A stretch of DNA of 31,722 nt from positions 1 to 31,722 of IMG/VR virus record IMGVR_UViG_3300046007_005029. One strand, written 5' to 3'. Both the position numbers and the translations under genes were made by a program. Under the pieces are notes generated by a model. It worked only from the letters and a program-made list of their open reading frames with translations, searched no databases and was not told the origin of the DNA. The stretch is from a virus. Lineage: Duplodnaviria; Caudoviricetes. Shown piece after piece: positions 13,550 through 31,720 of this stretch; the stretch's first letter is position 1; the number at the start of each line of letters is the position of its first letter.

Positions 13550-15036
13550 CTCCGTCCTATTGATTTTAGAAACTTCTTAAGTTGTTTTTCCACTAGCCTC
13601 ATCGTCTCGACTGTCGGCATCTGCGGCATATCATTACTCAACCCCCGCGGCCACACTCCGAACTGCTCTCTGTAAGTGTGAGCCGCTCGTCCGCTGGACC
13701 ATCCTTTGTATCGCTGATACCAGACCATCTGATTCCAGAACTTCTGTTTGGACTCTCGACTGGCTCCAGCGTTAGCAACAAGCTCCTCCATTCTTCCATC
13801 AACTCTGATAATTGCATTTTGTTTTTCCCTCACAAATCCACAATGATGGCACGCATCATTACCTTCAATCCACAACGCCCCACACCGCTGACACTTGCTC
13901 TCTTTCTTTTCCCTCTCTGATGGTTCGCTCTTGCTTTTCTCGCGGCCATCGTCCAGGCGGTTTACCCCATCTTGAAATACGTCATCCCAATCGTCTTGGA
14001 ATCTAAGATAGTTACCGCTGTGATCTAGCCAGACAGCAAACGGTTTATCCGTCGGATTATTTAGGTTCGCCCGCATCACCCTGCCCATCTGCTGGATGTG
14101 TGATGACAGACTCTTCGAGAATGGCCGCGCCGAGATACCGATCATCACGTCCGGAACGTCGAAGCCTTTGGTCAGTATGTCGGTGGCAATCAAGCCATGA
14201 ATCTTGGTGTCCGGCCTGCTGAAGTCCTCGATAGTCTGGCGCTTCCACTCGTCATCATCCTTGTAGCTGACGCACACAAAGTTATACCCGCGGTTTGCAA
14301 ACTCCCGCGAGAGATGAACGCCGTGATCAACACCCGCGCAGAAGACAATCGTCTTCCGTGGCCGACCAAATATCTCGTGCGTCTTCTTAATCCACTCGGC
14401 CACCACGTCACCGGTAATCTTGATGCCGCGCCGCGTGGCTTCTAATTGTGACCACTCGCCGGCCACCTTCTTCGCGCCGCTCATGTCAATTTCTTTGGCA
14501 ATGAACACGCGCAGCGGGACTAGTAGCTTCTCATCTACTAGCTGCTTGGTAGTCACCGGACTAACCACGTTGTCATAAACTTTGCCAAGACCTCTGGTAA
14601 ACGGCGTGGCTGTTAAACCAATCACGCGGATGTTCGGATTGGCTTTAATGAAATCAATCGTGGCCTTGCGAGTTTGATGCGCTTCATCAATGATGAGCAG
14701 GTCAAGCCCTGGGAACTCGCCGCGTTTCTCTAGCGTCTGTGCTGAACACACTTGGATAGGTTCGTACGGACGGTAACGCCAGTGGCCTGACTGTAGAACA
14801 CCGTGGTCAATGCCATATTTTTCTAAGCGTCCGCTTGTTTGATTGCAGAGAACGATCCGATCAAGCAGCATGGCTGCGCGATTGCCCTTCTCTTTGACAG
14901 CCTTCATCAAAGCGATGGCCATCTCAGTTTTGCCTGCACCCGTAGGCGCTACTAATATCTGCGCCTTCGCACCATTTGCGAAACCCTTTCGCAATAGTGA
15001 GAGCGCCTCCTCTTGATACGACCGGAGTTCTAACAT
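13546..15036 (-). CDS. Superfamily 2 DNA helicase (SSL2/YejH-like) with C-terminal Zn ribbon
   Basis: APTGAGKT, IIDEAH, GLTATP, LTKGFDVP, QQMGRVMR, CQRC..CHHC. Confidence 0.92.
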   Translation of the reverse strand: MLELRSYQEEALSLLRKGFANGAKAQILVAPTGAGKTEMAIALMKAVKEKGNRAAMLLDRIVLCNQTSGRLEKYGIDHGVLQSGHWRYRPYEPIQVCSAQTLEKRGEFPGLDLLIIDEAHQTRKATIDFIKANPNIRVIGLTATPFTRGLGKVYDNVVSPVTTKQLVDEKLLVPLRVFIAKEIDMSGAKKVAGEWSQLEATRRGIKITGDVVAEWIKKTHEIFGRPRKTIVFCAGVDHGVHLSREFANRGYNFVCVSYKDDDEWKRQTIEDFSRPDTKIHGLIATDILTKGFDVPDVMIGISARPFSKSLSSHIQQMGRVMRANLNNPTDKPFAVWLDHSGNYLRFQDDWDDVFQDGVNRLDDGREKSKSEPSEREKKESKCQRCGALWIEGNDACHHCGFVREKQNAIIRVDGRMEELVANAGASRESKQKFWNQMVWYQRYKGWSSGRAAHTYREQFGVWPRGLSNDMPQMPTVETMRLVEKQLKKFLKSIGRR

Positions 15037-15057
15037 TGATTCCTCTCTCTGCCAGCA

Positions 15058-16209
15058 CTAGCCCGCTGGCTTGGGCATCTGTAATTTTATTCGCTTTCCT
15101 ATCCAATTCATCACAGGTACGGCCATTGAATTTCCCAATGCCTTGTAGCGTGGTCCATCGGGAGAATCTATCGCCTTGCGCCACGGGATATTGGTGTACC
15201 CATCTGGGAATCCCTGCAATCGTTCGCACTCGACTGGCGTAAGACGGCGCACCGCCATTGATTGAATCAATACGTTTTCACCACCGGAGTTGCGTCCTTG
15301 CGCGAAGGCAACGTCACTAACACAGGGGTCTTGAGTACCATGAATAACTGTTGGCTGCGCTACACCTTGCAAACCAGTGGTGTCCAACGTGTACATCGTG
15401 CCGTCAGCTTTCCAACCTGCGCCGTTCTGATTTTTATCGCGGCTGCTTGTGTCGGCTAACGCTATCGGCGCAAGGATCGGTGTCTGCCCTTCATCAAGGG
15501 TGGTGTTGATACCCTTGTGCATCCGTTGCGTCAGACAGTTGGCGACACGGTAGGGTTGGAAGTGTCCAACTGCTGCTCCTTCTGGTCGCCCTCCTGCGCC
15601 ACCACTGAAAGAGCTGCTTGCAATTGCTCCGGCAATTTCTTTCCGCGCTTCTCTGCTCGGCGGAGAATCCCCGCGCACGCTTTCGCGCTCAAAAAGAACC
15701 TCGGCGGCAGGTCGCCAGTCTCCAAGGTATCCGACAACGAACACACGACGGCGTCGCTGGGCCACTCCGAAGTACTGAGCGTCAAGCGTTCTGTAGGCGA
15801 ACCCATACCCGAGTTCTGCCAACGCCCCGAGGAAGGAACCAAAGTCCCGTCCTCCGCTACTACTGAGGACACCCGGCACGTTTTCCCATACGCACCACTG
15901 GGGTCTAAACCTGTCAAGAATTCCGACATAAGTGAGGGCGAGGTTGCCTCGAGGGTCTTCGAGTCCACGCCTGAGTCCGGCGACGGAAAAAGATTGGCAA
16001 GGTGTTCCACCGACCAGAAGGTCAATTGGCTCAAGGTTCCACTCCTTGTACTTGGTCATGTCCCCTAGGTTGGGAACGTTGGGGTAATGGTGCGCTAGCA
16101 CCGCAGATGGGAAGGCTTCGATCTCAGAGAACCCCACTGGCTGCCAACCCAGTGGGTGCCATGCTACCGTCGCTGCCTCTATGCCCGAGCAGACAGACAG
16201 GTATCTCAT
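15058..16209 (-). CDS. DNA (cytosine-5) methyltransferase, alpha polypeptide
   Basis: Motif I SVCSGIEA, IV GGTPCQSFS, VI WENVPG, VIII QRRRRVF, RRLTPVECERLQGFP, X YKALGNSMAVP. Confidence 0.95.
   Translation of the reverse strand: MRYLSVCSGIEAATVAWHPLGWQPVGFSEIEAFPSAVLAHHYPNVPNLGDMTKYKEWNLEPIDLLVGGTPCQSFSVAGLRRGLEDPRGNLALTYVGILDRFRPQWCVWENVPGVLSSSGGRDFGSFLGALAELGYGFAYRTLDAQYFGVAQRRRRVFVVGYLGDWRPAAEVLFERESVRGDSPPSREARKEIAGAIASSSFSGGAGGRPEGAAVGHFQPYRVANCLTQRMHKGINTTLDEGQTPILAPIALADTSSRDKNQNGAGWKADGTMYTLDTTGLQGVAQPTVIHGTQDPCVSDVAFAQGRNSGGENVLIQSMAVRRLTPVECERLQGFPDGYTNIPWRKAIDSPDGPRYKALGNSMAVPVMNWIGKRIKLQMPKPAG
15531..16034 (-). CDS. Nested alternative-frame gene, M.EcoHK31I beta-like methyltransferase subunit
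   Basis: 167 aa entirely inside the MTase gene on the same strand; AAGGAG 7 nt before the TTG start; S.RW.NSGM...E.PS....CSLSD.LET.....FFLS..AC.GILRRA..RG..LP resembles the EcoHK31I beta polypeptide. Confidence 0.75.
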   Translation of the reverse strand: MSQLTFWSVEHLANLFPSPDSGVDSKTLEATSPSLMSEFLTGLDPSGAYGKTCRVSSVVAEDGTLVPSSGRWQNSGMGSPTERLTLSTSEWPSDAVVCSLSDTLETGDLPPRFFLSAKACAGILRRAEKRGKKLPEQLQAALSVVAQEGDQKEQQLDTSNPTVSPTV

Positions 16210-17006
16210 CCCTGAAGTTTCTTAAGCTTGTTGGTGAGGCTGTTAACCTGCCGCATCAGCTGCGCGTTCTCTCTCATCAAAGAATCTCGAGAATCGGTGA
16301 CCGCCTTGACTTCAATCTCCAGCAATCGGATCTGAGCGCGTAAGTCTTTGATGGTGGACTCGGCCATGGCCTTGTCCAGTTCATCCGCATCCATGCTTGC
16401 GATGGCCAGCTGGTCAGACAACGCTTCGTTCTCCGCTTTCAACAGCTCAATCGTGGCCTGCATTTCCTCCTGAAAAATATCATCCTCGTTTGGAGTTTCT
16501 TCCAAGGTTGGAGTTTCTTCCAGCTTTGGATTTTCTTCCAAGGTTGGAGCTGCTTGCGCCTTGTTGCTCTGTTTCTTTTCTTCTAACTCTTGTTTTACTT
16601 TTAATACCAGTGAGTGGCTGCAATCACACAGGACAGCGATCTCGCGGCTGGGTTTGCTCTTAGTTCTTGGATGTGACAGCGCATTCAATACAGACTTGCG
16701 GCGATCTTTGACGGTTGGACGTAGGCCATGCTTGCTGTTGACGCTCCAGCTTTTGATGATGGCGTCATCAAGGGTGCCTTCCTGCACGTCACACTCAATG
16801 CCTGGCGCTCCGATCTTCCGAGCGGCGAAGTAACGGTGAAATCCATCCACCAGATAGTGCTTTGTGCCATCTGATATCACTAGACAGGGAGTAAATTTCG
16901 CCCCGTCTTTCATCGCCTCCGCATACTCAGCAATCGTATGCTTGTCTAATGACACGCGAGACTGTGTGCCGGCGTCAATTGTTATTTTGTCAAGACTCAG
17001 GTGCAT
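16206..17006 (-). CDS. ParB/Srx-like N-terminal domain protein with HTH and coiled coil
   Basis: TQSR, LVDGFHRYFAA, N.KHGL, SREIAVLCDCSHSLV (HTH); start moved to ATG 17006 (GGGAG RBS). Confidence 0.8.
   Translation of the reverse strand: MHLSLDKITIDAGTQSRVSLDKHTIAEYAEAMKDGAKFTPCLVISDGTKHYLVDGFHRYFAARKIGAPGIECDVQEGTLDDAIIKSWSVNSKHGLRPTVKDRRKSVLNALSHPRTKSKPSREIAVLCDCSHSLVLKVKQELEEKKQSNKAQAAPTLEENPKLEETPTLEETPNEDDIFQEEMQATIELLKAENEALSDQLAIASMDADELDKAMAESTIKDLRAQIRLLEIEVKAVTDSRDSLMRENAQLMRQVNSLTNKLKKLQG
16490..16549. repeat. 3.3 tandem copies of an 18 bp quasi-palindromic unit inside the ParB-like gene
   Basis: TTGGAGTTTCTTCCAAGG / TTGGAGTTTCTTCCAGCT / TTGGATTTTCTTCCAAGG / TTGGAG; encodes PTLEENPKLEETPTLEETPN. 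Confidence 0.9.
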
Positions 17007-17008
17007 AA

Positions 17009-17113
17009 TTACTCCCATGTAAACGCAATAAATGCAGCAACTGCTAGGCCAAGGATAGATCCCGCGCCAATCAATATGCCGCTAACTAAAATGATGGCAG
17101 TGAATGTATCCAC
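17009..17113 (-). CDS. Small single-pass membrane peptide (34 aa), not in the ORF track
   Basis: MDTFTAIILVSGILIGAGSILGLAVAAFIAFTWE; TAGTG coupling to the upstream ORF; fills the gap exactly. Confidence 0.6.
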   Translation of the reverse strand: MDTFTAIILVSGILIGAGSILGLAVAAFIAFTWE

Positions 17114-23146: not shown

Positions 23147-23436
23147 AGGAATTAAGCAGATGCGATAAAAGGTTTTGGGATTGGTTTTCTAGTGCGTACG
23201 CCAAACTTCCAAAGGGTCAAGAGCTTCCCTTAAGCGATGAAGACTTATATGAGTTATGGGTGTCTATGTGGCCGGTGATTTACCACTGCGGCATGACTTA
23301 CGGCCAATCGCTGGCTGATAAAAAAAATAGGCGTTCGATGGGTATTTATGAAATGAAAAGATTGTACGACTTATGTCCAAACAAAACCGGTTATGAGCTT
23401 GGCGTGATGATAGAAAAGTGGCACGGGATAGGATAA
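23143..23436 (+). CDS. Hypothetical protein
   Basis: 97 aa, GGAGG RBS, GTGA overlap, visibly lower GC than its neighbours. Confidence 0.6.
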   Translation: MKELSRCDKRFWDWFSSAYAKLPKGQELPLSDEDLYELWVSMWPVIYHCGMTYGQSLADKKNRRSMGIYEMKRLYDLCPNKTGYELGVMIEKWHGIG

Positions 23437-23465
23437 ATAATGGAAACAATTCAAGAGGATATAAG

Positions 23466-24284
23466 TTGAGAGACCCATTCATTATTGACGAGCCAATCTG
23501 TATCTCCTTCAGCGGAGGTCGGACATCTGCTTACCTGCTGTGGCGTGTCCTGCAATCCAACGGCGGCTTACCCGAACAGGCAATCGTCTGCTTCGCCAAC
23601 ACCGGCAAGGAGGAAGAGGCAACGCTGGAGTTTGTCAGAAACTGCGAGACAAACTGGAACGTGAAGATTCATTGGCTGGAGTATCAAAATGAAAAGCCTA
23701 ACTTCCGTGTGGTGGACTTTGCCACAGCCAGCAGGAATGGGGAACCGTTCGAGCAGCTGATTCTGAAGCGCAAGTATCTGCCCAATCCGGTGACTAGATT
23801 TTGCACAGCCATCTTGAAGATACGCACCATCCATCGGTATCTGAAACATCTTGGTTGGAAGCACAACGAGAACATGGATTGGCTGGGCATCCGAGCGGAC
23901 GAGCAGCGCAGAGCCGCCAAGGTAGATCGTAGTCGAGCGCCGTTAGTTGCCGCGGGCATTACTGCCAAGGATGTAGGCGAGTTCTGGAAGTCACAGCCTT
24001 TTGACTTAGGCTTGCCCAACATCAATGGCAAAACCATGCACGGGAACTGTGACTTATGTTTCTTGAAAGGTGCCAAACAAATCCTAAGTCTGGTGGCAGA
24101 GAAGCCGGAGCGGGCGGTCTGGTGGGCAAAGATGGAGACGCTAGTCCAGACGAGCAACCAAACGTTTGGCAATGGCGCTAGGTTCCGTAAGGACAGACCG
24201 TCTTATGCAGAGATGCAGAAGTACGTGGACAAACAGGTGGACATGTTTGATGACGAATCCATAGATTGTTATTGCGGAGAGTAA
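23466..24284 (+). CDS. PAPS-reductase-family (PP-loop) protein
   Basis: ISFSGGRTSAYL, FANTGKE, RFCT..LK, GIRADE.RR, GNCDLCFLK, terminal CYCGE; likely TTG start 23466 (AGAGGA RBS). Confidence 0.8.
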   Translation: MRDPFIIDEPICISFSGGRTSAYLLWRVLQSNGGLPEQAIVCFANTGKEEEATLEFVRNCETNWNVKIHWLEYQNEKPNFRVVDFATASRNGEPFEQLILKRKYLPNPVTRFCTAILKIRTIHRYLKHLGWKHNENMDWLGIRADEQRRAAKVDRSRAPLVAAGITAKDVGEFWKSQPFDLGLPNINGKTMHGNCDLCFLKGAKQILSLVAEKPERAVWWAKMETLVQTSNQTFGNGARFRKDRPSYAEMQKYVDKQVDMFDDESIDCYCGE

Positions 24285-24707: not shown

Positions 24708-24970
24708 TCCCGTACTCGGTTCACTTGTCTGAATCGACATACACGGCGCTGAAAGAACATGCCAAACACCGGCAGGCTTCTACCCTGGTGCGCAACGCTA
24801 TCGACATGATCCTCAGTAAAGAGGACCCCTTCAACGCTGGGTACAACCAAGCGCTGCGGGATGTCATCAAGACGATCAAGTCACACAAGCTAGCCAACGA
24901 TATCGTCTTCGCAGGCGAGAGCATAGGCGACACGCTGGTGACAGCTATCTCGGAGATCCATACCAGATGA
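24704..24970 (+). CDS. Putative ribbon-helix-helix DNA-binding protein
   Basis: PYSVHL (strand), ESTYTALKEHA (helix), ASTLVRNAIDMIL (helix); ATGA overlap. Confidence 0.6.
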   Translation: MIPYSVHLSESTYTALKEHAKHRQASTLVRNAIDMILSKEDPFNAGYNQALRDVIKTIKSHKLANDIVFAGESIGDTLVTAISEIHTR

Positions 24971-25500
24971 GCCACCCAGCGCAGCTACAGTTTGTCGCAG
25001 ACATCAAGAAGAACTACGTCAACCTGTTCTTTCGCAAGAAGGTTCTGGAGATCGGCAGCTTAAACATCAACGGATCTATCCGGTACTTCTTCATGGAATG
25101 TGATTACACCGGCGTTGACATAGGCGAAGGTCCGGGAGTTGATCTGGTTGCCCGCGGGGAAGACTTGGATTTCCCCAACGAAAGCTTTGACGTAGTGGCT
25201 TCTTGCGAATGTTTCGAACACAACCCCGAGTGGGCTAGGACGTTTGACAACATGACCAGAATGGCTAGGTCTTTGGTGTTCTTCTCTTGCGCTACCACCG
25301 GCAGGCCAGAGCACGGCACCAGCAGGACAACGCCGCAGGACGCGCCTTTCTGCGGGGACTATTACCAGAACCTAAAAGCTTCTGACTTCTTGGAGAAGTG
25401 CAACCTGAAACCGTATTTGCATTACACCTTTGCAGTAAACAAAGCAGCACAAGACCTGTACTTTATCGGCATCAAAAAACCTGGAGAGAATCATGGCTAG
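24967..25500 (+). CDS. Class I SAM-dependent methyltransferase
   Basis: VLEIGS..ING, YTGVDI..G.GVD, SFDVVASCECFEH. Confidence 0.85.
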   Translation: MSHPAQLQFVADIKKNYVNLFFRKKVLEIGSLNINGSIRYFFMECDYTGVDIGEGPGVDLVARGEDLDFPNESFDVVASCECFEHNPEWARTFDNMTRMARSLVFFSCATTGRPEHGTSRTTPQDAPFCGDYYQNLKASDFLEKCNLKPYLHYTFAVNKAAQDLYFIGIKKPGENHG

Positions 25501-26239
25501 ACTATTCGTAGGCACCCCAATGTACGGCGGCATGTGTACCGGCCACTATGCCCAGAGCATGTTGCAGTTGCAGAACACCATGCAGCGCAACCGTATCGAC
25601 ATGGCAGTAAGCTTCGTGTTCAACGAGTCGCTCATCACCCGTGGAAGAAATGCCATCGTCCACAACTTCCTGAAGTCTGGCTTCACGCACCTGATGTTTA
25701 TCGACGCGGACATCAAGTTCAACGCCGAGGACATCATCCCTATGCTGCTGTCAGAGAAGGAAATCATCTGCGGCATCTACCCCAAGAAGGAGATCAACTG
25801 GGCGCTGGTGGAGCAGGCAGTCAAGGCGGGTGTGCCTACAGATCAGATCAAGTACTACTCTGGCACCCATGTGGTGAACCTGCTAGACGGCGCTGCCCAA
25901 CAGAAGTTTGTGGTAACAGAGCCAGCCAAGATCGCCAACGGTGGTACTGGCTTCATGATCATCAAGCGGGAGGTTTTCGACCGCATGGCGCCACACGTAG
26001 GCCGGTATATCAACAACGCAGTAGATCTGTCCGGCAACATCGGTGCAGAAGAGATCGTCGAGTTCTTCACCACCAGCATTGATCCTGAGACACAGCACCT
26101 ACTGTCTGAGGATTATCACTTCTGCCGAGTCTGGAGAGAGCTGGGCGGAGACATCTGGACAGCACCGTGGGTACAGCTGGGTCACATGGGCAGCTACCTG
26201 TTCGATGGTTCGATGTCGCCGGAACTGCCGGAGGGGTGA
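25493..26239 (+). CDS. GT-A fold glycosyltransferase-like protein
   Basis: GTPMYGG, ESLITRGRN, HLMFIDADI (DxD), GTGFMIIKREVF, LSEDYHFC..W...GG.IW. Confidence 0.75.
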   Translation: MARLFVGTPMYGGMCTGHYAQSMLQLQNTMQRNRIDMAVSFVFNESLITRGRNAIVHNFLKSGFTHLMFIDADIKFNAEDIIPMLLSEKEIICGIYPKKEINWALVEQAVKAGVPTDQIKYYSGTHVVNLLDGAAQQKFVVTEPAKIANGGTGFMIIKREVFDRMAPHVGRYINNAVDLSGNIGAEEIVEFFTTSIDPETQHLLSEDYHFCRVWRELGGDIWTAPWVQLGHMGSYLFDGSMSPELPEG

Positions 26240-27021
26240 TGACCTACGACCAGATCACTGTGGTCGCCATCTATGGGGACGGGCGTGGCAACGTTGCCAT
26301 GCCAGCCCTAGAGAAGACTGCCGCCTGTTTCCCAGGATGCAAGAAACTGCTGATCACCAACCAGCGGTTAGGGATAGACATCCCGCAGAAGATCTGTGGC
26401 CCGCTAGATCACTATGGCTACTCAGCATTCTGCATGTACGCCCTGCACCATTACATCGATACTGACTACGCCCTGATCGTGCAGCACGACGGCTGGGCGC
26501 TGTCAGCAGATAACTGGAAGGATGATTGGCTGAACTATGATTACATAGGCGGCCTAGTCCACGCAGCGCTGGTGGGCGAGCAGTTCTATACCAACTTCGG
26601 CTGGATAGGACAGCCAGATCCTATCGTTATTCAGAATGGAGGATTTAGCCTGAGAAGTAAGAAGTTCATGCAGGCATTAGTACACAACGGCATCATGCCT
26701 AAAATGTACAACATTGCCATGTTGAACAATGAAGACGTACAACTGACCGGCTTCCTGCGCCCAGCGTTAGAGAAAGTCGGCATAAAGTTTGCCGCTGACG
26801 AAGAAGCCACAATGTTTGCTTTCGAGCATCTATCGCCTACCATTCACAAGGACGTGGACCTGACAAAAGTGTTTGGACACCACAGCAGGTTCAGGTCTTT
26901 AGTGGATGATAAGACGATACTTTGGAAGCTTGATCAAGACACCACCAACGAAATACCGTGGGAGCTGAAAGTCTACGATTTGTTTTCAGATCACTATGGT
27001 TATCGTATTGTTCATGAGTAA
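26239..27021 (+). CDS. DUF5672-like (glycosyltransferase-related) protein
   Basis: YS.FC...L..YIDTDYALIVQHDG, W...WL.YDYIG, NGGFSLRSKK, NED, FG.H motifs; TGATG coupling. Confidence 0.7.
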   Translation: MTYDQITVVAIYGDGRGNVAMPALEKTAACFPGCKKLLITNQRLGIDIPQKICGPLDHYGYSAFCMYALHHYIDTDYALIVQHDGWALSADNWKDDWLNYDYIGGLVHAALVGEQFYTNFGWIGQPDPIVIQNGGFSLRSKKFMQALVHNGIMPKMYNIAMLNNEDVQLTGFLRPALEKVGIKFAADEEATMFAFEHLSPTIHKDVDLTKVFGHHSRFRSLVDDKTILWKLDQDTTNEIPWELKVYDLFSDHYGYRIVHE

Positions 27022-28078: not shown

Positions 28079-28346
28079 GAAGTATATGGACGAAGTAGCC
28101 GGGATCGGCTGCGTTCTCTGTCTTCATCTTGACTACGGCTATACCCCCGCCGTCCTGCATCATCCTCGTGATGCGGTTGGCGGGGCGCAGCGTGCGTCAG
28201 ACTGGCTGGTGATTCCTCTTTGTCCGGAACATCACACCGGTAAGTCGGGATACCACGGACTAGGAAGCAGAGGCTTTTATACACGGTACAAACTTACAGA
28301 GTGGGATCTGATGGCCATGACTATTGAGCGCCATCAAAAGCTTTAA
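28065..28346 (+). CDS. Ref/DUF968-like HNH protein
   Basis: GCVLC...LHHPR...GGAQRASD..VIPLCPEHH.G..G.HG. Confidence 0.75.
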   Translation: MKTVKKYMDEVAGIGCVLCLHLDYGYTPAVLHHPRDAVGGAQRASDWLVIPLCPEHHTGKSGYHGLGSRGFYTRYKLTEWDLMAMTIERHQKL

Positions 28347-31300
28347 TCCTCACCGCCACCGTACGTCTCCATCAGACGGCCACGCAGCTTCGGATTCAGA
28401 TACACACCGTCCACACTCTCCGCTATATGCCGTTGCCGTGACATGAACGAATTGCGCAGAGTCTTGGCATCAATATCCACCTCTGGATTCTTATCGTTGA
28501 ACTTCCCTATGGCCTGCATGATCTCTTGCAGCCCGTCGTTGTCACCCTGCTGACGAGCCAGATAAGCTTTCTCCAACAGCGCTGCACGGCGATCCATGAT
28601 GGCACGCTCTGCCCGCTTCGTAGCACCAGCCCTAGCCTGGGCTTCTGCAAGTTCTGCTGGGTTGAATCCAAAGATCTGCATGAACGTGTTGTACGCCCCG
28701 ATGTCATCAGTGATCGGCACGCCGTCCTTGGTCATGGCACCTTCCGTTCCCAGACGGAAAGCTTTCAATCCATTCCGTATGAAGCTTGGCATCAACGCTT
28801 CCATGCCCCGCTGCCACTCACCCTCTTGCACCAGCTTCAGTCCGCGCTCAGCATTCCTGAACGCCCCGTAAGCTGGACCCGCAGCCTGCTCAATGGCATA
28901 CAGCGTCGGACCTATCTCAGCCAAACGCTTGGGATCATCCCGCCATATCAGCCCGTTAAATCCAGTACGGCTGGCAATGTCCACTGCAAGTAAAGCGTTG
29001 ACCGGACCCTTGTACCCAATGTCCCCGAACGCCGCACGGACAGTAGCGTCCATATCGAATGGTTCATCATCATCGTCTGCCAACATATTGGCCAGTACAG
29101 ATACCGCTCCGTACAGCGGCATACCTTGGATACCAGCAAAGATATAAGACGTACCTGCAATCCCCAGCAGCTGCTTGCGGGCGATGTCTCGAGTGTCCTT
29201 GTCAGCGCTTTTGAACGCCTGATGGAACAGCCGCCCCATCAAATAGATCTGCGCCTGCGCAAAGCGTTTGAAGGTGAAGGCTACCTTACCTATGCCCTGC
29301 TGGAAGAAGCGTGGACCTATCTCCGCTAGGGAAGCGCCGTGTGCGTCATTCACCACTGAGATAGCGTAGTCAATAGCGCCATCCACCGACATCCCCGGCT
29401 TGCCATTAGCGCCCTCTCTCGCCAGCTTGAATGCAGCGATCAGGGTGATCTCACGGTTGGCACGTTCCGAGTTCTGGAAGATCCATCCAAGGCCGTGCTC
29501 TATCTGTGCGCGGCGCCCTGTAAAGTCTTCCACCTTAGACTTACGAGCCTCTGTAATCTCATAGCCTGTAGACCGGCGGATAGCCTGCTGCTGAACGGCG
29601 GTGTCGTACAGTTGCTTCAACTCACCCTTGGCATTAGCACCAAACGTCCAGTCAGGCAGGAACTCGCTGTTGTCATCCTTACCGCCCTTCCAGTACTGGA
29701 TCGTTGCCTGACGCATAGCATCTGCCGCCCGACCGAATCCGTACCGTCCGCCCAGTAATGGGTAGACAACGATAGGCATCTGAGTCAAGTTGACTAGGGC
29801 GCTGGATACGTTACCGGCGATGAACCACATGTAGCTGAAGTAGCTAGCCTTGTTGACGATGTCACCGTTAACAGGGTTGCGGATGAAGTCCAGCTGCTTC
29901 TGCATGTTATCCACAACATCACGCAGTTCCATCGTGGGGTTCTGCTCGAACTCCTCACGGACACCAGTGACCGCCTTCTCCAGCGGCTCAGCATTTTTCA
30001 TGTTGGCCAGCTGGTTTGCCATGCGGGTAGCCACGTTGGCGTATACCTGGAAGACATCCTCACGGAAACCAAGCCTGCCCTCGCGCTTGCGGAACTGCTG
30101 CCGCACAGACTGGGCTGGGAACAGGGAGAGGTAGGTCTGGTAAATGCTGTCGATAACCTCTGGCTGTACGCCCTGATCCTGTAGTTGTTTGACCACGGAT
30201 CCCATAAATCCTGTGGGCGGGACAGTCCGGTAGGTAATCTGTTGCAGGCGGGTGAACTCTTTTACGTCAGTCATCCCGTCAGCTCTAGCCTTCTCAGCTG
30301 CCTGCTTGGCCTCGCGGACACTTTCGAACGCCATGGAAACGCGCTCGTCATTCTTGTCGTTGAACGAAACCCAGTAGTCACCCATACGGAATAGCGGCAG
30401 GTACACTTTCAGCCGCTTGGCTTCCATCTTCAGCCGTATCACAGAGGCTTGGCTTTGCTTTAGGTTAGACAGAAGCAGATGCATATACTCATCTGATGAC
30501 TTTTTGTAGTCATCACGAAGCTGCTTGTATACCTTTTGCAAGTCAGGATGAAGCTTCTCAAATTCCTTGGTCAGAGGATTGTTTGCCTCGGCAGGATCTA
30601 ACACGTCAATCTGGTCTAGCGTCGTGCGGTTAGCAATCGCGAAGAACCGCGGCAGCTGAGCCTTGTGCTTATTGGCAATCTTGTACCAGTCTTGGATGTT
30701 CTTGGAGATGCTCTGCCGGCGAGCCATCATGTCAGCGGCGCGGGCTTCTAGCGCAGTAGTTAACTTCTTCAGAGAAGGTAGCTGTGTGCCGTAGATTTCC
30801 TGTATCTGCGGCATCGTCAGGAAGCCAAGCGCTGCGCTACGCACCTTGTCCGGTACGTTAGACATGGCATTCTTGAAGTCATCAGCTAGCTGAGAGTTCA
30901 TCCCCGGCAGATTGTTTACCTGCTGGTTCAGGCCATTAAAGATGTTGGCTGCGCGTTTGCTGTAACGGATGTCAGTCTTTGTTGGATCAAAGGTGCCAAT
31001 GTTTCCAATAGCAGATTTAATCTGGTTTGGTTTAAACACTACATAAATATTTTCGCCCTTAAATCTACCTTTCATAAAAGCATCGACTCGGCTGTACTCA
31101 CCGGAATCAAAGGTATTACGTAAGATAAGTCCGTCATGCCCATTTCGACGAGCTTTGTCAATTAATTCCCGGTAAGTTGCATCTCGAAAAACTTTGTTTT
31201 TGAAGTCATGCACTAATGGGTTTTGCATGGACAAATATACTGGCATTACATTTGGCGTGGTTCCTTCTTCGGTACGCCCAGAAGGCATAAAATCTTTTGT

Positions 31301-31720
31301 ATAAACAATCCTGCTAGTTGCTTGAGCTGCTGACTCAAGATTGGGGAAATTGCCTCTTGCATAATAGTCTGCTGTTTTCTTTCTATCAGTAAAGAAGAAT
31401 CCTACCTGAGCTGACGGAGCGCCCGTATTTGTACCAAGTTTTTCTGGAGCAAAGTCCGAAAAATCATAAGCTGTTCCGTGATACACAACTAGTGGATTGC
31501 CATTAGCATCAACAACTTTGCTGTTTCCGAACCATTTGCGGAACTCTGGTGTGGCTGTAACTTTTTTCCCGGTTGGCTGAGTTTGCTCTCTAGCCGGCAT
31601 AGCTGCCCTGACTGGACCTTTCACCACAGCCTTGCGAGCGTTGGCAATTAAGCCAATCACTTCTTGATCGGTGATAGCGCCGACAGGTACGCCCAGCCTA
31701 CGCAGGAACTGTTTGATTAC
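28343..31720 (-). CDS. Large polyvalent (putatively injected) protein, 5'-truncated by the window; ART-PolyVal-like and PLxRFG-like regions
   Basis: Frame stays open to the window edge; FRKWFGNSKVVDANGNPLVVYHGT..GFFFT..VMPVYL...NPL..GHDGLI..NQIKSAIGN.GTF (ART-PolyVal-like); YLPLFRMGDYWV (PLxRFG-like); long helical C-terminus. Confidence 0.8.
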   Translation of the reverse strand, partial: VIKQFLRRLGVPVGAITDQEVIGLIANARKAVVKGPVRAAMPAREQTQPTGKKVTATPEFRKWFGNSKVVDANGNPLVVYHGTAYDFSDFAPEKLGTNTGAPSAQVGFFFTDRKKTADYYARGNFPNLESAAQATSRIVYTKDFMPSGRTEEGTTPNVMPVYLSMQNPLVHDFKNKVFRDATYRELIDKARRNGHDGLILRNTFDSGEYSRVDAFMKGRFKGENIYVVFKPNQIKSAIGNIGTFDPTKTDIRYSKRAANIFNGLNQQVNNLPGMNSQLADDFKNAMSNVPDKVRSAALGFLTMPQIQEIYGTQLPSLKKLTTALEARAADMMARRQSISKNIQDWYKIANKHKAQLPRFFAIANRTTLDQIDVLDPAEANNPLTKEFEKLHPDLQKVYKQLRDDYKKSSDEYMHLLLSNLKQSQASVIRLKMEAKRLKVYLPLFRMGDYWVSFNDKNDERVSMAFESVREAKQAAEKARADGMTDVKEFTRLQQITYRTVPPTGFMGSVVKQLQDQGVQPEVIDSIYQTYLSLFPAQSVRQQFRKREGRLGFREDVFQVYANVATRMANQLANMKNAEPLEKAVTGVREEFEQNPTMELRDVVDNMQKQLDFIRNPVNGDIVNKASYFSYMWFIAGNVSSALVNLTQMPIVVYPLLGGRYGFGRAADAMRQATIQYWKGGKDDNSEFLPDWTFGANAKGELKQLYDTAVQQQAIRRSTGYEITEARKSKVEDFTGRRAQIEHGLGWIFQNSERANREITLIAAFKLAREGANGKPGMSVDGAIDYAISVVNDAHGASLAEIGPRFFQQGIGKVAFTFKRFAQAQIYLMGRLFHQAFKSADKDTRDIARKQLLGIAGTSYIFAGIQGMPLYGAVSVLANMLADDDDEPFDMDATVRAAFGDIGYKGPVNALLAVDIASRTGFNGLIWRDDPKRLAEIGPTLYAIEQAAGPAYGAFRNAERGLKLVQEGEWQRGMEALMPSFIRNGLKAFRLGTEGAMTKDGVPITDDIGAYNTFMQIFGFNPAELAEAQARAGATKRAERAIMDRRAALLEKAYLARQQGDNDGLQEIMQAIGKFNDKNPEVDIDAKTLRNSFMSRQRHIAESVDGVYLNPKLRGRLMETYGGGED

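Follow-up and report, generated by a model that had tools for sequence, protein, structure and literature searches.

A gene within a phage C5 cytosine methyltransferase gene, related by sequence to the beta subunit of M.EcoHK31I

The window, by which we mean the whole stretch of 31,722 nucleotides analysed here, is a 31.7-kb linear virus record that is about half complete and derives from a tailed phage with capsid and terminase genes. The phage occurs in lake-water metagenomes. Positions 15058..16209 on the minus strand encode a protein of 383 amino acids, here called alpha, which matches PF00145 over residues 1-375 (E 4e-52) and TIGR00675. Judged from its sequence, alpha is a C5 cytosine DNA methyltransferase over its whole length. 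In the standard numbering of motifs I to X, alpha carries motifs I-VIII, a variable region, motif IX, and motif X in a single frame. The ten motifs follow in order, with the catalytic Pro-Cys, the Glu-Asn-Val, and the Gln-Arg-x-Arg expected of PF00145; alpha aligns with M.HaeIII and M.HhaI, motifs IX-X included, and its predicted model resembles C5 methyltransferases. Motif IV, GGTPCQSFS (15985..16011, minus), holds the Pro-Cys at residues 70-71 with the catalytic Cys71. It is followed by motif VIII, QRRRRVFVVG (15730..15759, minus), motif IX, RRLTPVECERLQGFPD (15202..15249, minus), and motif X, YKALGNSMAV (15118..15147, minus), the last placed by alignment to known enzymes and by profile. The variable region between motifs VIII and IX (15250..15625, minus) is the likely target-recognition part. 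It is highly divergent among homologs, and the model is of low confidence here, with pLDDT <50 across most of residues 194-312. Across 67 homologs, alpha ranges from 314 to 520 amino acids. As a comparison class for alpha, we take multispecific phage methyltransferases, whose variable region presumably houses a set of interchangeable recognition modules. Alpha is flanked by a ParB-like gene on one side and a helicase gene on the other, and no restriction gene adjoins it in the window. The ParB-like protein (16206-17018, minus) has a coiled-coil tail and lies directly upstream, overlapping the start of alpha by 4 nt.

Nested within alpha is a second open reading frame, beta, of 167 amino acids with a TTG start (15531..16034, minus), which occupies the +1 frame over alpha codons 59-227. 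Seven nucleotides before the TTG stands a Shine-Dalgarno sequence, AAGGAG (16042..16047, minus), spelled by the alpha codons Lys55-Glu56. The initial annotation had pointed out this 167-codon same-strand frame and its ribosome site, and both are borne out at 16034-15531. It had also described the frame as covering motifs IV-VIII; beta indeed starts just before motif IV, but extends about 65 codons beyond motif VIII. The N-terminal part of beta, which overlaps motif IV, is poorly conserved. Further along, RWQNSGM (beta residues 71-77; 15804..15824, minus) lies over alpha motif VII, where the alpha codons GAA, CTC, and TAT are fixed, and EWPSD..CSLS lies over motif VIII. The core module of beta follows at residues 98-142 (15609..15743, minus), reads CSLSDTLET...FFLSAKACAGILRRAEKRGKKLP..L..AL, and comprises two predicted helices; its consensus among relatives is LSDxLE...LSxKACxGILRRAEKRGKxLP. 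Contigs from four lake-water runs show 0-1 differences from the window across 15000-15730, 15870-16039, and 16018-16300, an agreement pieced together from several contigs, none of which covers the whole stretch alone. Near the beta start, we observed no repeats or RNA structure of note, and the RNA runs contained at most 0.08 of the window's words.

Folded by itself, beta gives an AlphaFold model with a mean pLDDT of 63.8, with only the C-terminal helices confident and residues 1-105 mostly low. Foldseek returned no match for this model at E <0.001, the beta sequence had no credible match among solved structures in the PDB, Pfam and NCBIfam yielded no family, and the top match in the Atlas search carried no name. 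At rank 27 of that search, with a score of 0.85, stands a cluster named "EaeI methyltransferase beta subunit family protein", which is a lead only.

The +1 frame, together with its ribosome site and start, is under selection, and we regard the gene within a gene as confirmed. When alpha codons 61-200 of the window were resampled synonymously 1000 times, no replicate left the +1 frame free of stops (0/1000, mean 6.1 stops). Over the same codons in 67 homologs, which are 81 aligned sequences thinned to <90% identity, the +1 frame contains one stop versus about 423 expected from synonymous resampling, while the +2 frame of the same 9367 codons contains 459 stops; outside the overlap, stops make up 4.7% of the +1 frame. 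In 80 of 80 viral loci chosen by alpha alone, the +1 frame over the beta region stays open for 142 codons or more; one viral homolog (L058) has an early stop in the beta frame. The avoidance of stop codons, proposed at the outset as a check on the nested gene, is thus near-total, and the frame is intact in the close homologs in which a break would have counted against it. Synonymous entropy at conserved alpha residues is 0.65, 0.65, 0.39, and 0.18 along the overlap versus 0.90 outside it; since the homologs are related sequences, the corresponding p-values overstate the constraint, but the effect is large. Past motif VIII, at the core module, the codon-position pattern turns to the beta frame: the most variable base is the alpha first position, which is the beta third (1.10 versus 0.49 at the alpha third). 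This shift indicates that beta is the conserved protein there. The dual-coding core at 15660-15880 is conserved even as DNA, as contigs of many other organisms pile up on it at 85% identity, with a summed contig depth of >10,000 versus about 30 on the flanks.

The start signal follows the same pattern. Lys55 is encoded by AAG in 50/53 homologs and Glu56 by GAG in 51/58, compared to 45-47% for these codons elsewhere, so that the beta ribosome site is kept through synonymous codon choice in alpha. A ribosome site of -6 kcal/mol or below is present in 52 of the 66 homologs having a start versus 6% of 1246 control triplets; this score is the best among up to five candidate starts, and a few automatic start picks are plainly wrong. 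The start codon itself is TTG in 35 of the 67 homologs, ATG in 30, and GTG in 1, with none found in 1.

The arrangement extends to bacterial genomes. Of 80 such loci, selected by means of the alpha profile, every one encodes the module, 73 in the +1 frame and 7 displaced by poly-C length. The frame runs for at least 139 codons in 72 of the 73, the other (L225) having a stop inside beta, and motifs IX and X both lie in alpha at 64/80. Four of the displaced loci had appeared to carry the module in the alpha frame and three in the +2 frame; both classes were rejected, as all seven are poly-C length variants. In Collinsella/Coriobacteriaceae loci (L204-L206, L221, L223, L225, L226, L233, L236, L237, L240), the poly-C run falls within the dual-coding stretch, near base 495 of the methyltransferase gene, and is 6, 7, 8, and 9 long in 1, 4, 3, and 3 loci. 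Its length shifts both frames in or out of register together, which reflects either phase variation or assembly error.

A two-chain C5 methyltransferase with such a nested subunit, M.EcoHK31I of E. coli HK31, was reportedly described by Lee, Kam and Shaw in 1995 as an alpha/beta enzyme recognising YGGCCR. According to the accessible text of two later papers, its alpha polypeptide comprises motifs I-VIII, the target-recognition domain, and motif X, and its beta provides motif IX (PMC2836561, PMC3404938). The accessible part of the former further states that alpha alone gives no protection, and that upon truncation of beta, activity starts falling at delta37 and drops sharply between delta69 and delta70 (PMC2836561). 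Using the M.EcoHK31IB primers published with that paper, we located the EcoHK31I locus (L167); the beta primer places the system in 81/5426 E. coli genomes. At L167, alpha has 309 amino acids and lacks motif IX, and beta has 176 amino acids with motif IX at its C-terminal end. The window beta family matches M.EcoHK31I beta 11-109 of 176 by profile with 98.1% probability (E 1.1e-13, 36% identity, 99 columns), on which basis we consider the two homologous; the two alphas share 30% identity. A resemblance of RW.NSGM and CSLSD.LET...FLS to EcoHK31I beta, suggested in the initial annotation, is thereby upheld, with RWQNSGM corresponding to EcoHK31I beta 36-42. Counted on L167, the delta37 and delta69/70 cuts hit RWSNSGM and LSQVLE, so the shared part matters in EcoHK31I beyond motif IX.

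In both systems, beta is nested entirely in the +1 frame of alpha. The division of motifs is different, however. The motif IX profile scores 62.1 bits on the window alpha and -3.9 on the window beta, as opposed to -5.7 on EcoHK31I alpha and 31.8 on its beta, and a regular expression found motif IX in 79/80 viral alphas. The window beta begins at alpha codon 59 and ends after the module, whereas that of EcoHK31I begins at about alpha codon 104 and continues into motif IX. Moreover, EcoHK31I has a restriction endonuclease gene beside it, whereas the window methyltransferase stands as an orphan, with ParB-like and helicase genes as its neighbours. The initial designation of an EcoHK31I-type beta subunit consequently stands as to nesting and homology, but not as to type, because motif IX resides in alpha (62 bits) and no restriction gene adjoins. 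Instead, the layout is a variant of that of EcoHK31I and is new relative to the literature found. We read the window pair, as the best interpretation of these comparisons, as one that would work like the EcoHK31I pair but is cut elsewhere, with beta giving only the segment after motif VIII.

Support for this assignment comes from longer proteins containing the module. Among 65 such matches, 41 carry the module followed by motifs IX and X, and two are near-copies of a whole one-chain enzyme. We then examined 151 proteins from a search with the VIII-to-module stretch of a one-chain enzyme, taking the best 150 of 3069 matches. Motifs IV, VI, VIII, the module, IX, and X occur in a single chain in 23/151, of which 21 are distinct after removal of one near-copy and of P0230, in which the module abuts motif VIII and which is a likely indel or frameshift product. 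The distance from motif VIII to the YLS of the module is about 70-113 residues in one-chain proteins, and a profile of 31 one-chain segments is matched first by alpha 137-178 and, further along, by beta 70-155. Because the beta module served to pick the one-chain query, some circularity attaches to the match between the one-chain set and beta, but none to the succession of VIII, module, and IX within a single chain. One-chain C5 methyltransferases (P0177, P0203-P0253, and others) thus show the order motif VIII, module, variable region, IX, and X, equivalent to alpha and beta placed end to end, but in a single polypeptide rather than in the two frames of the window. The one-chain profile also weakly matches the collinear stretch after motif VIII in Dcm (304-326) and in the phage leB enzyme (176-208), with E 0.005 and 0.001 per sequence, respectively. 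Direct profile comparison of beta gave nil against E. coli Dcm (0.4%) and a non-significant 4.7% against the one-chain enzyme of phage leB.

In a catalytic-core tree of 20 nested, 20 one-chain, and 3 outside sequences, with 5 one-chain rows skipped by the cutting rule, the nested and one-chain forms interleave, requiring at least 4-5 changes. Neither form makes up one clade, and the tree gives no direction. This interleaving calls for repeated fusion, splitting, or recombination. The fusions to IX-X in 41/65 longer proteins and the presence of the module in 80/80 genome loci further indicate that the module travels with the enzyme wherever the cut falls. We infer that it is an enzyme part which may be placed in the alpha chain, together with motif IX as in EcoHK31I, together with IX-X, or alone as in the window. 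Two other arrangements were observed: P0271 has a beta-like part fused behind motif X, and P0171 and P0215 have motif I-III-like sequence C-terminal, after motif X.

We therefore postulate, with a probability of roughly 0.7, that beta is an independently translated structural second subunit that would complete the methyltransferase with its post-VIII segment. Ribosomes would start beta at the internal AAGGAG/TTG, or at an ATG in about half of the homologs, and the product would bind alpha as a structural second subunit. The beta module would dock at the beginning of the small domain, in the position that the post-VIII segment takes in one-chain enzymes, and the alpha-beta pair would methylate cytosines of the phage DNA at C5, probably as protection from host restriction. 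Alpha lacks the module found at beta residues 98-142, yet has motifs IX and X. Sequence specificity most likely resides in the alpha variable region, as this region varies freely while beta stays the same.

Possessing all the classic motifs, alpha has no obvious need for beta, unlike its EcoHK31I counterpart, and it is conceivable, if improbable, that beta is made and binds alpha as an accessory: alpha would work alone, with beta tuning activity, stability, timing, or DNA affinity. Retention of motifs I-X on alpha would suit such a role, a weak TTG start, as about half of the homologs have, would be in keeping with a partner made in sub-stoichiometric amounts, and the basic helix of beta could touch the DNA backbone. 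Against this, the module lies in frame inside one-chain relatives and is present in 80/80 genome loci, and EcoHK31I alpha alone is described in the accessible text as unprotective (PMC2836561), though the beta of that system also carries motif IX. We consider it very unlikely that beta is the DNA-recognition (specificity) subunit. The module is Lys/Arg-rich and sits where the variable region of one-chain enzymes begins, but it is nearly invariant, whereas the alpha variable region differs widely (alpha 314-520 aa), and the EcoHK31I target-recognition domain is assigned to alpha in the accessible text (PMC2836561, PMC3404938). The chance that ribosomes enter the +1 frame by frameshifting from alpha to yield one fusion product is slight in the extreme. 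Called proteins joining an alpha N-terminus to the module do exist; those with the module abutting motif VIII, however, look like indel products, a ribosome site and start codon are conserved at the 5' end of the frame, the frame is open for about 100 codons upstream of the module, and a fusion would end before IX and X. Just as improbable is a job for beta unrelated to the methyltransferase (e.g., counter-defence), or a frame that is a shadow of alpha conservation: RWxNSG follows in part from alpha motif VII residues and beta has no Pfam or NCBIfam family, but a shadow fails both the synonymous null and the codon-position reversal, and an unrelated job is hard to square with modules fused to IX-X or to whole enzymes and with the EcoHK31I homology.

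Two other named systems can be set beside the proposed subunit pair. M.AquI is, according to the accessible text, a two-polypeptide C5 methyltransferase whose small subunit contains the distal variable region and motifs IX-X (PMC3404938). Both enzymes are divided after motif VIII, but the window pair keeps IX-X on alpha, and its nested chain holds only the post-VIII segment. The pair is accordingly not of the M.AquI type; that layout occurs in relatives, namely in the 41/65 longer proteins with IX-X. In the Cluster O mycobacteriophage Corndog, genes 7/6 overlap in +1, with the second frame starting inside the methyltransferase gene and its best ribosome site within the upstream gene; the accessible text of Cresawn et al. 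2015 leaves the mode of expression open (PMC4351075). Corndog gp7 ends at motif VIII and gp6 is the C-terminal part, in contrast to the nested beta. Against the beta profiles, gp6 has no significant match, the best being 1.6 bits at the expected place.

Relatives of the pair are widespread. Beta matches 155 phage records, 535 plasmid records, 1725 called proteins, and PHROG 16143; most of the 535 plasmid records are judged to be P1-like E. coli elements by size and Dam-family label. For alpha, we estimate about 2400 viral stretches. An open +1 frame with the module is present in P1 and JL22 dmt, Omega gp127, Beem 123, Vibrio K453, Streptococcus 5093, and Brevundimonas Bambus, as well as in a Bifidobacterium plasmid and an Enterobacter plasmid, and the records of all these phages and of both plasmids have no annotation of beta. 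The expectation that gene callers would miss the nested gene hence holds for the P1, Omega, Beem, and E. coli records, but not in general, given the 1725 called proteins and PHROG 16143. Beyond EcoHK31I, a literature search confined largely to openly available papers turned up no account of a nested beta gene in a phage methyltransferase, and the accessible parts of PMC3706429 and PMC12707154 make no mention of the nested frame.

In P1, the nested frame of dmt lies unannotated at AF234172 66710-67201, where a start signal as clear as that of the window is not evident. The cytosine activity of Dmt is annotated in the P1 record only as "perhaps". The dmt gene of P1 isolate OP279344 (L170:377-3418) has about 340 extra residues at the catalytic Pro-Cys, with Cys at their start and His-Asn at their end. 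This insert resembles an endonuclease-bearing intein, and the nested frame behind it is intact. In Cluster J mycobacteriophages, the methyltransferases appear to be three-piece, composed of an alpha with motifs I-VIII, a nested beta of some 157 codons that the records leave unannotated, and IX-X on a gene of their own (Omega gp127/128, L162:2191-3495; Beem 123/124, L168:1002-2118). A fusion of beta to IX-X in Beem was considered and rejected, as a stop separates them.

Dual coding across active-site motifs has been known for one restriction-system methyltransferase, whereas in the widespread phage family described here it is general. If beta is required, recoded genes are no basis for work on the orphan methyltransferases of this family, and the question of cytosine activity in P1 Dmt is opened to direct testing. 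The segment after motif VIII would then be a part that can be separated from the rest, of use in designing split enzymes and in studies of overlapping-gene origin. A broader proposal, which we advance tentatively and with the odds somewhat against it, is that C5 methyltransferases of phages and prophages include a large clade, P1 Dmt among its members, that could consist of obligate two-chain enzymes, with the small chain encoded in another frame over the catalytic core. Such a concealed chain would free the alpha recognition region for cassette-like exchange and give an internal translational switch for methylation (in Collinsella prophages perhaps also the poly-C run). Codon-optimised or re-synthesised genes of this clade would lose their function unnoticed, and frame changes around one movable module would convert the split, three-piece, and one-chain forms into one another.

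Elsewhere in the window, genes for a SAM-dependent methyltransferase, an Anp1-like glycosyltransferase, and a DUF5672 protein form a run (24967-27021, plus), preceded by a PAPS-reductase-like gene (23418-24284); from their predicted functions, these genes are a possible DNA or virion modification set. The window further encodes a GP88-family protein (PF17338; 9458-10210, plus) and a large polyvalent protein with ART-PolyVal and LPD39 domains (28343-31720, minus), which is cut by the window end.
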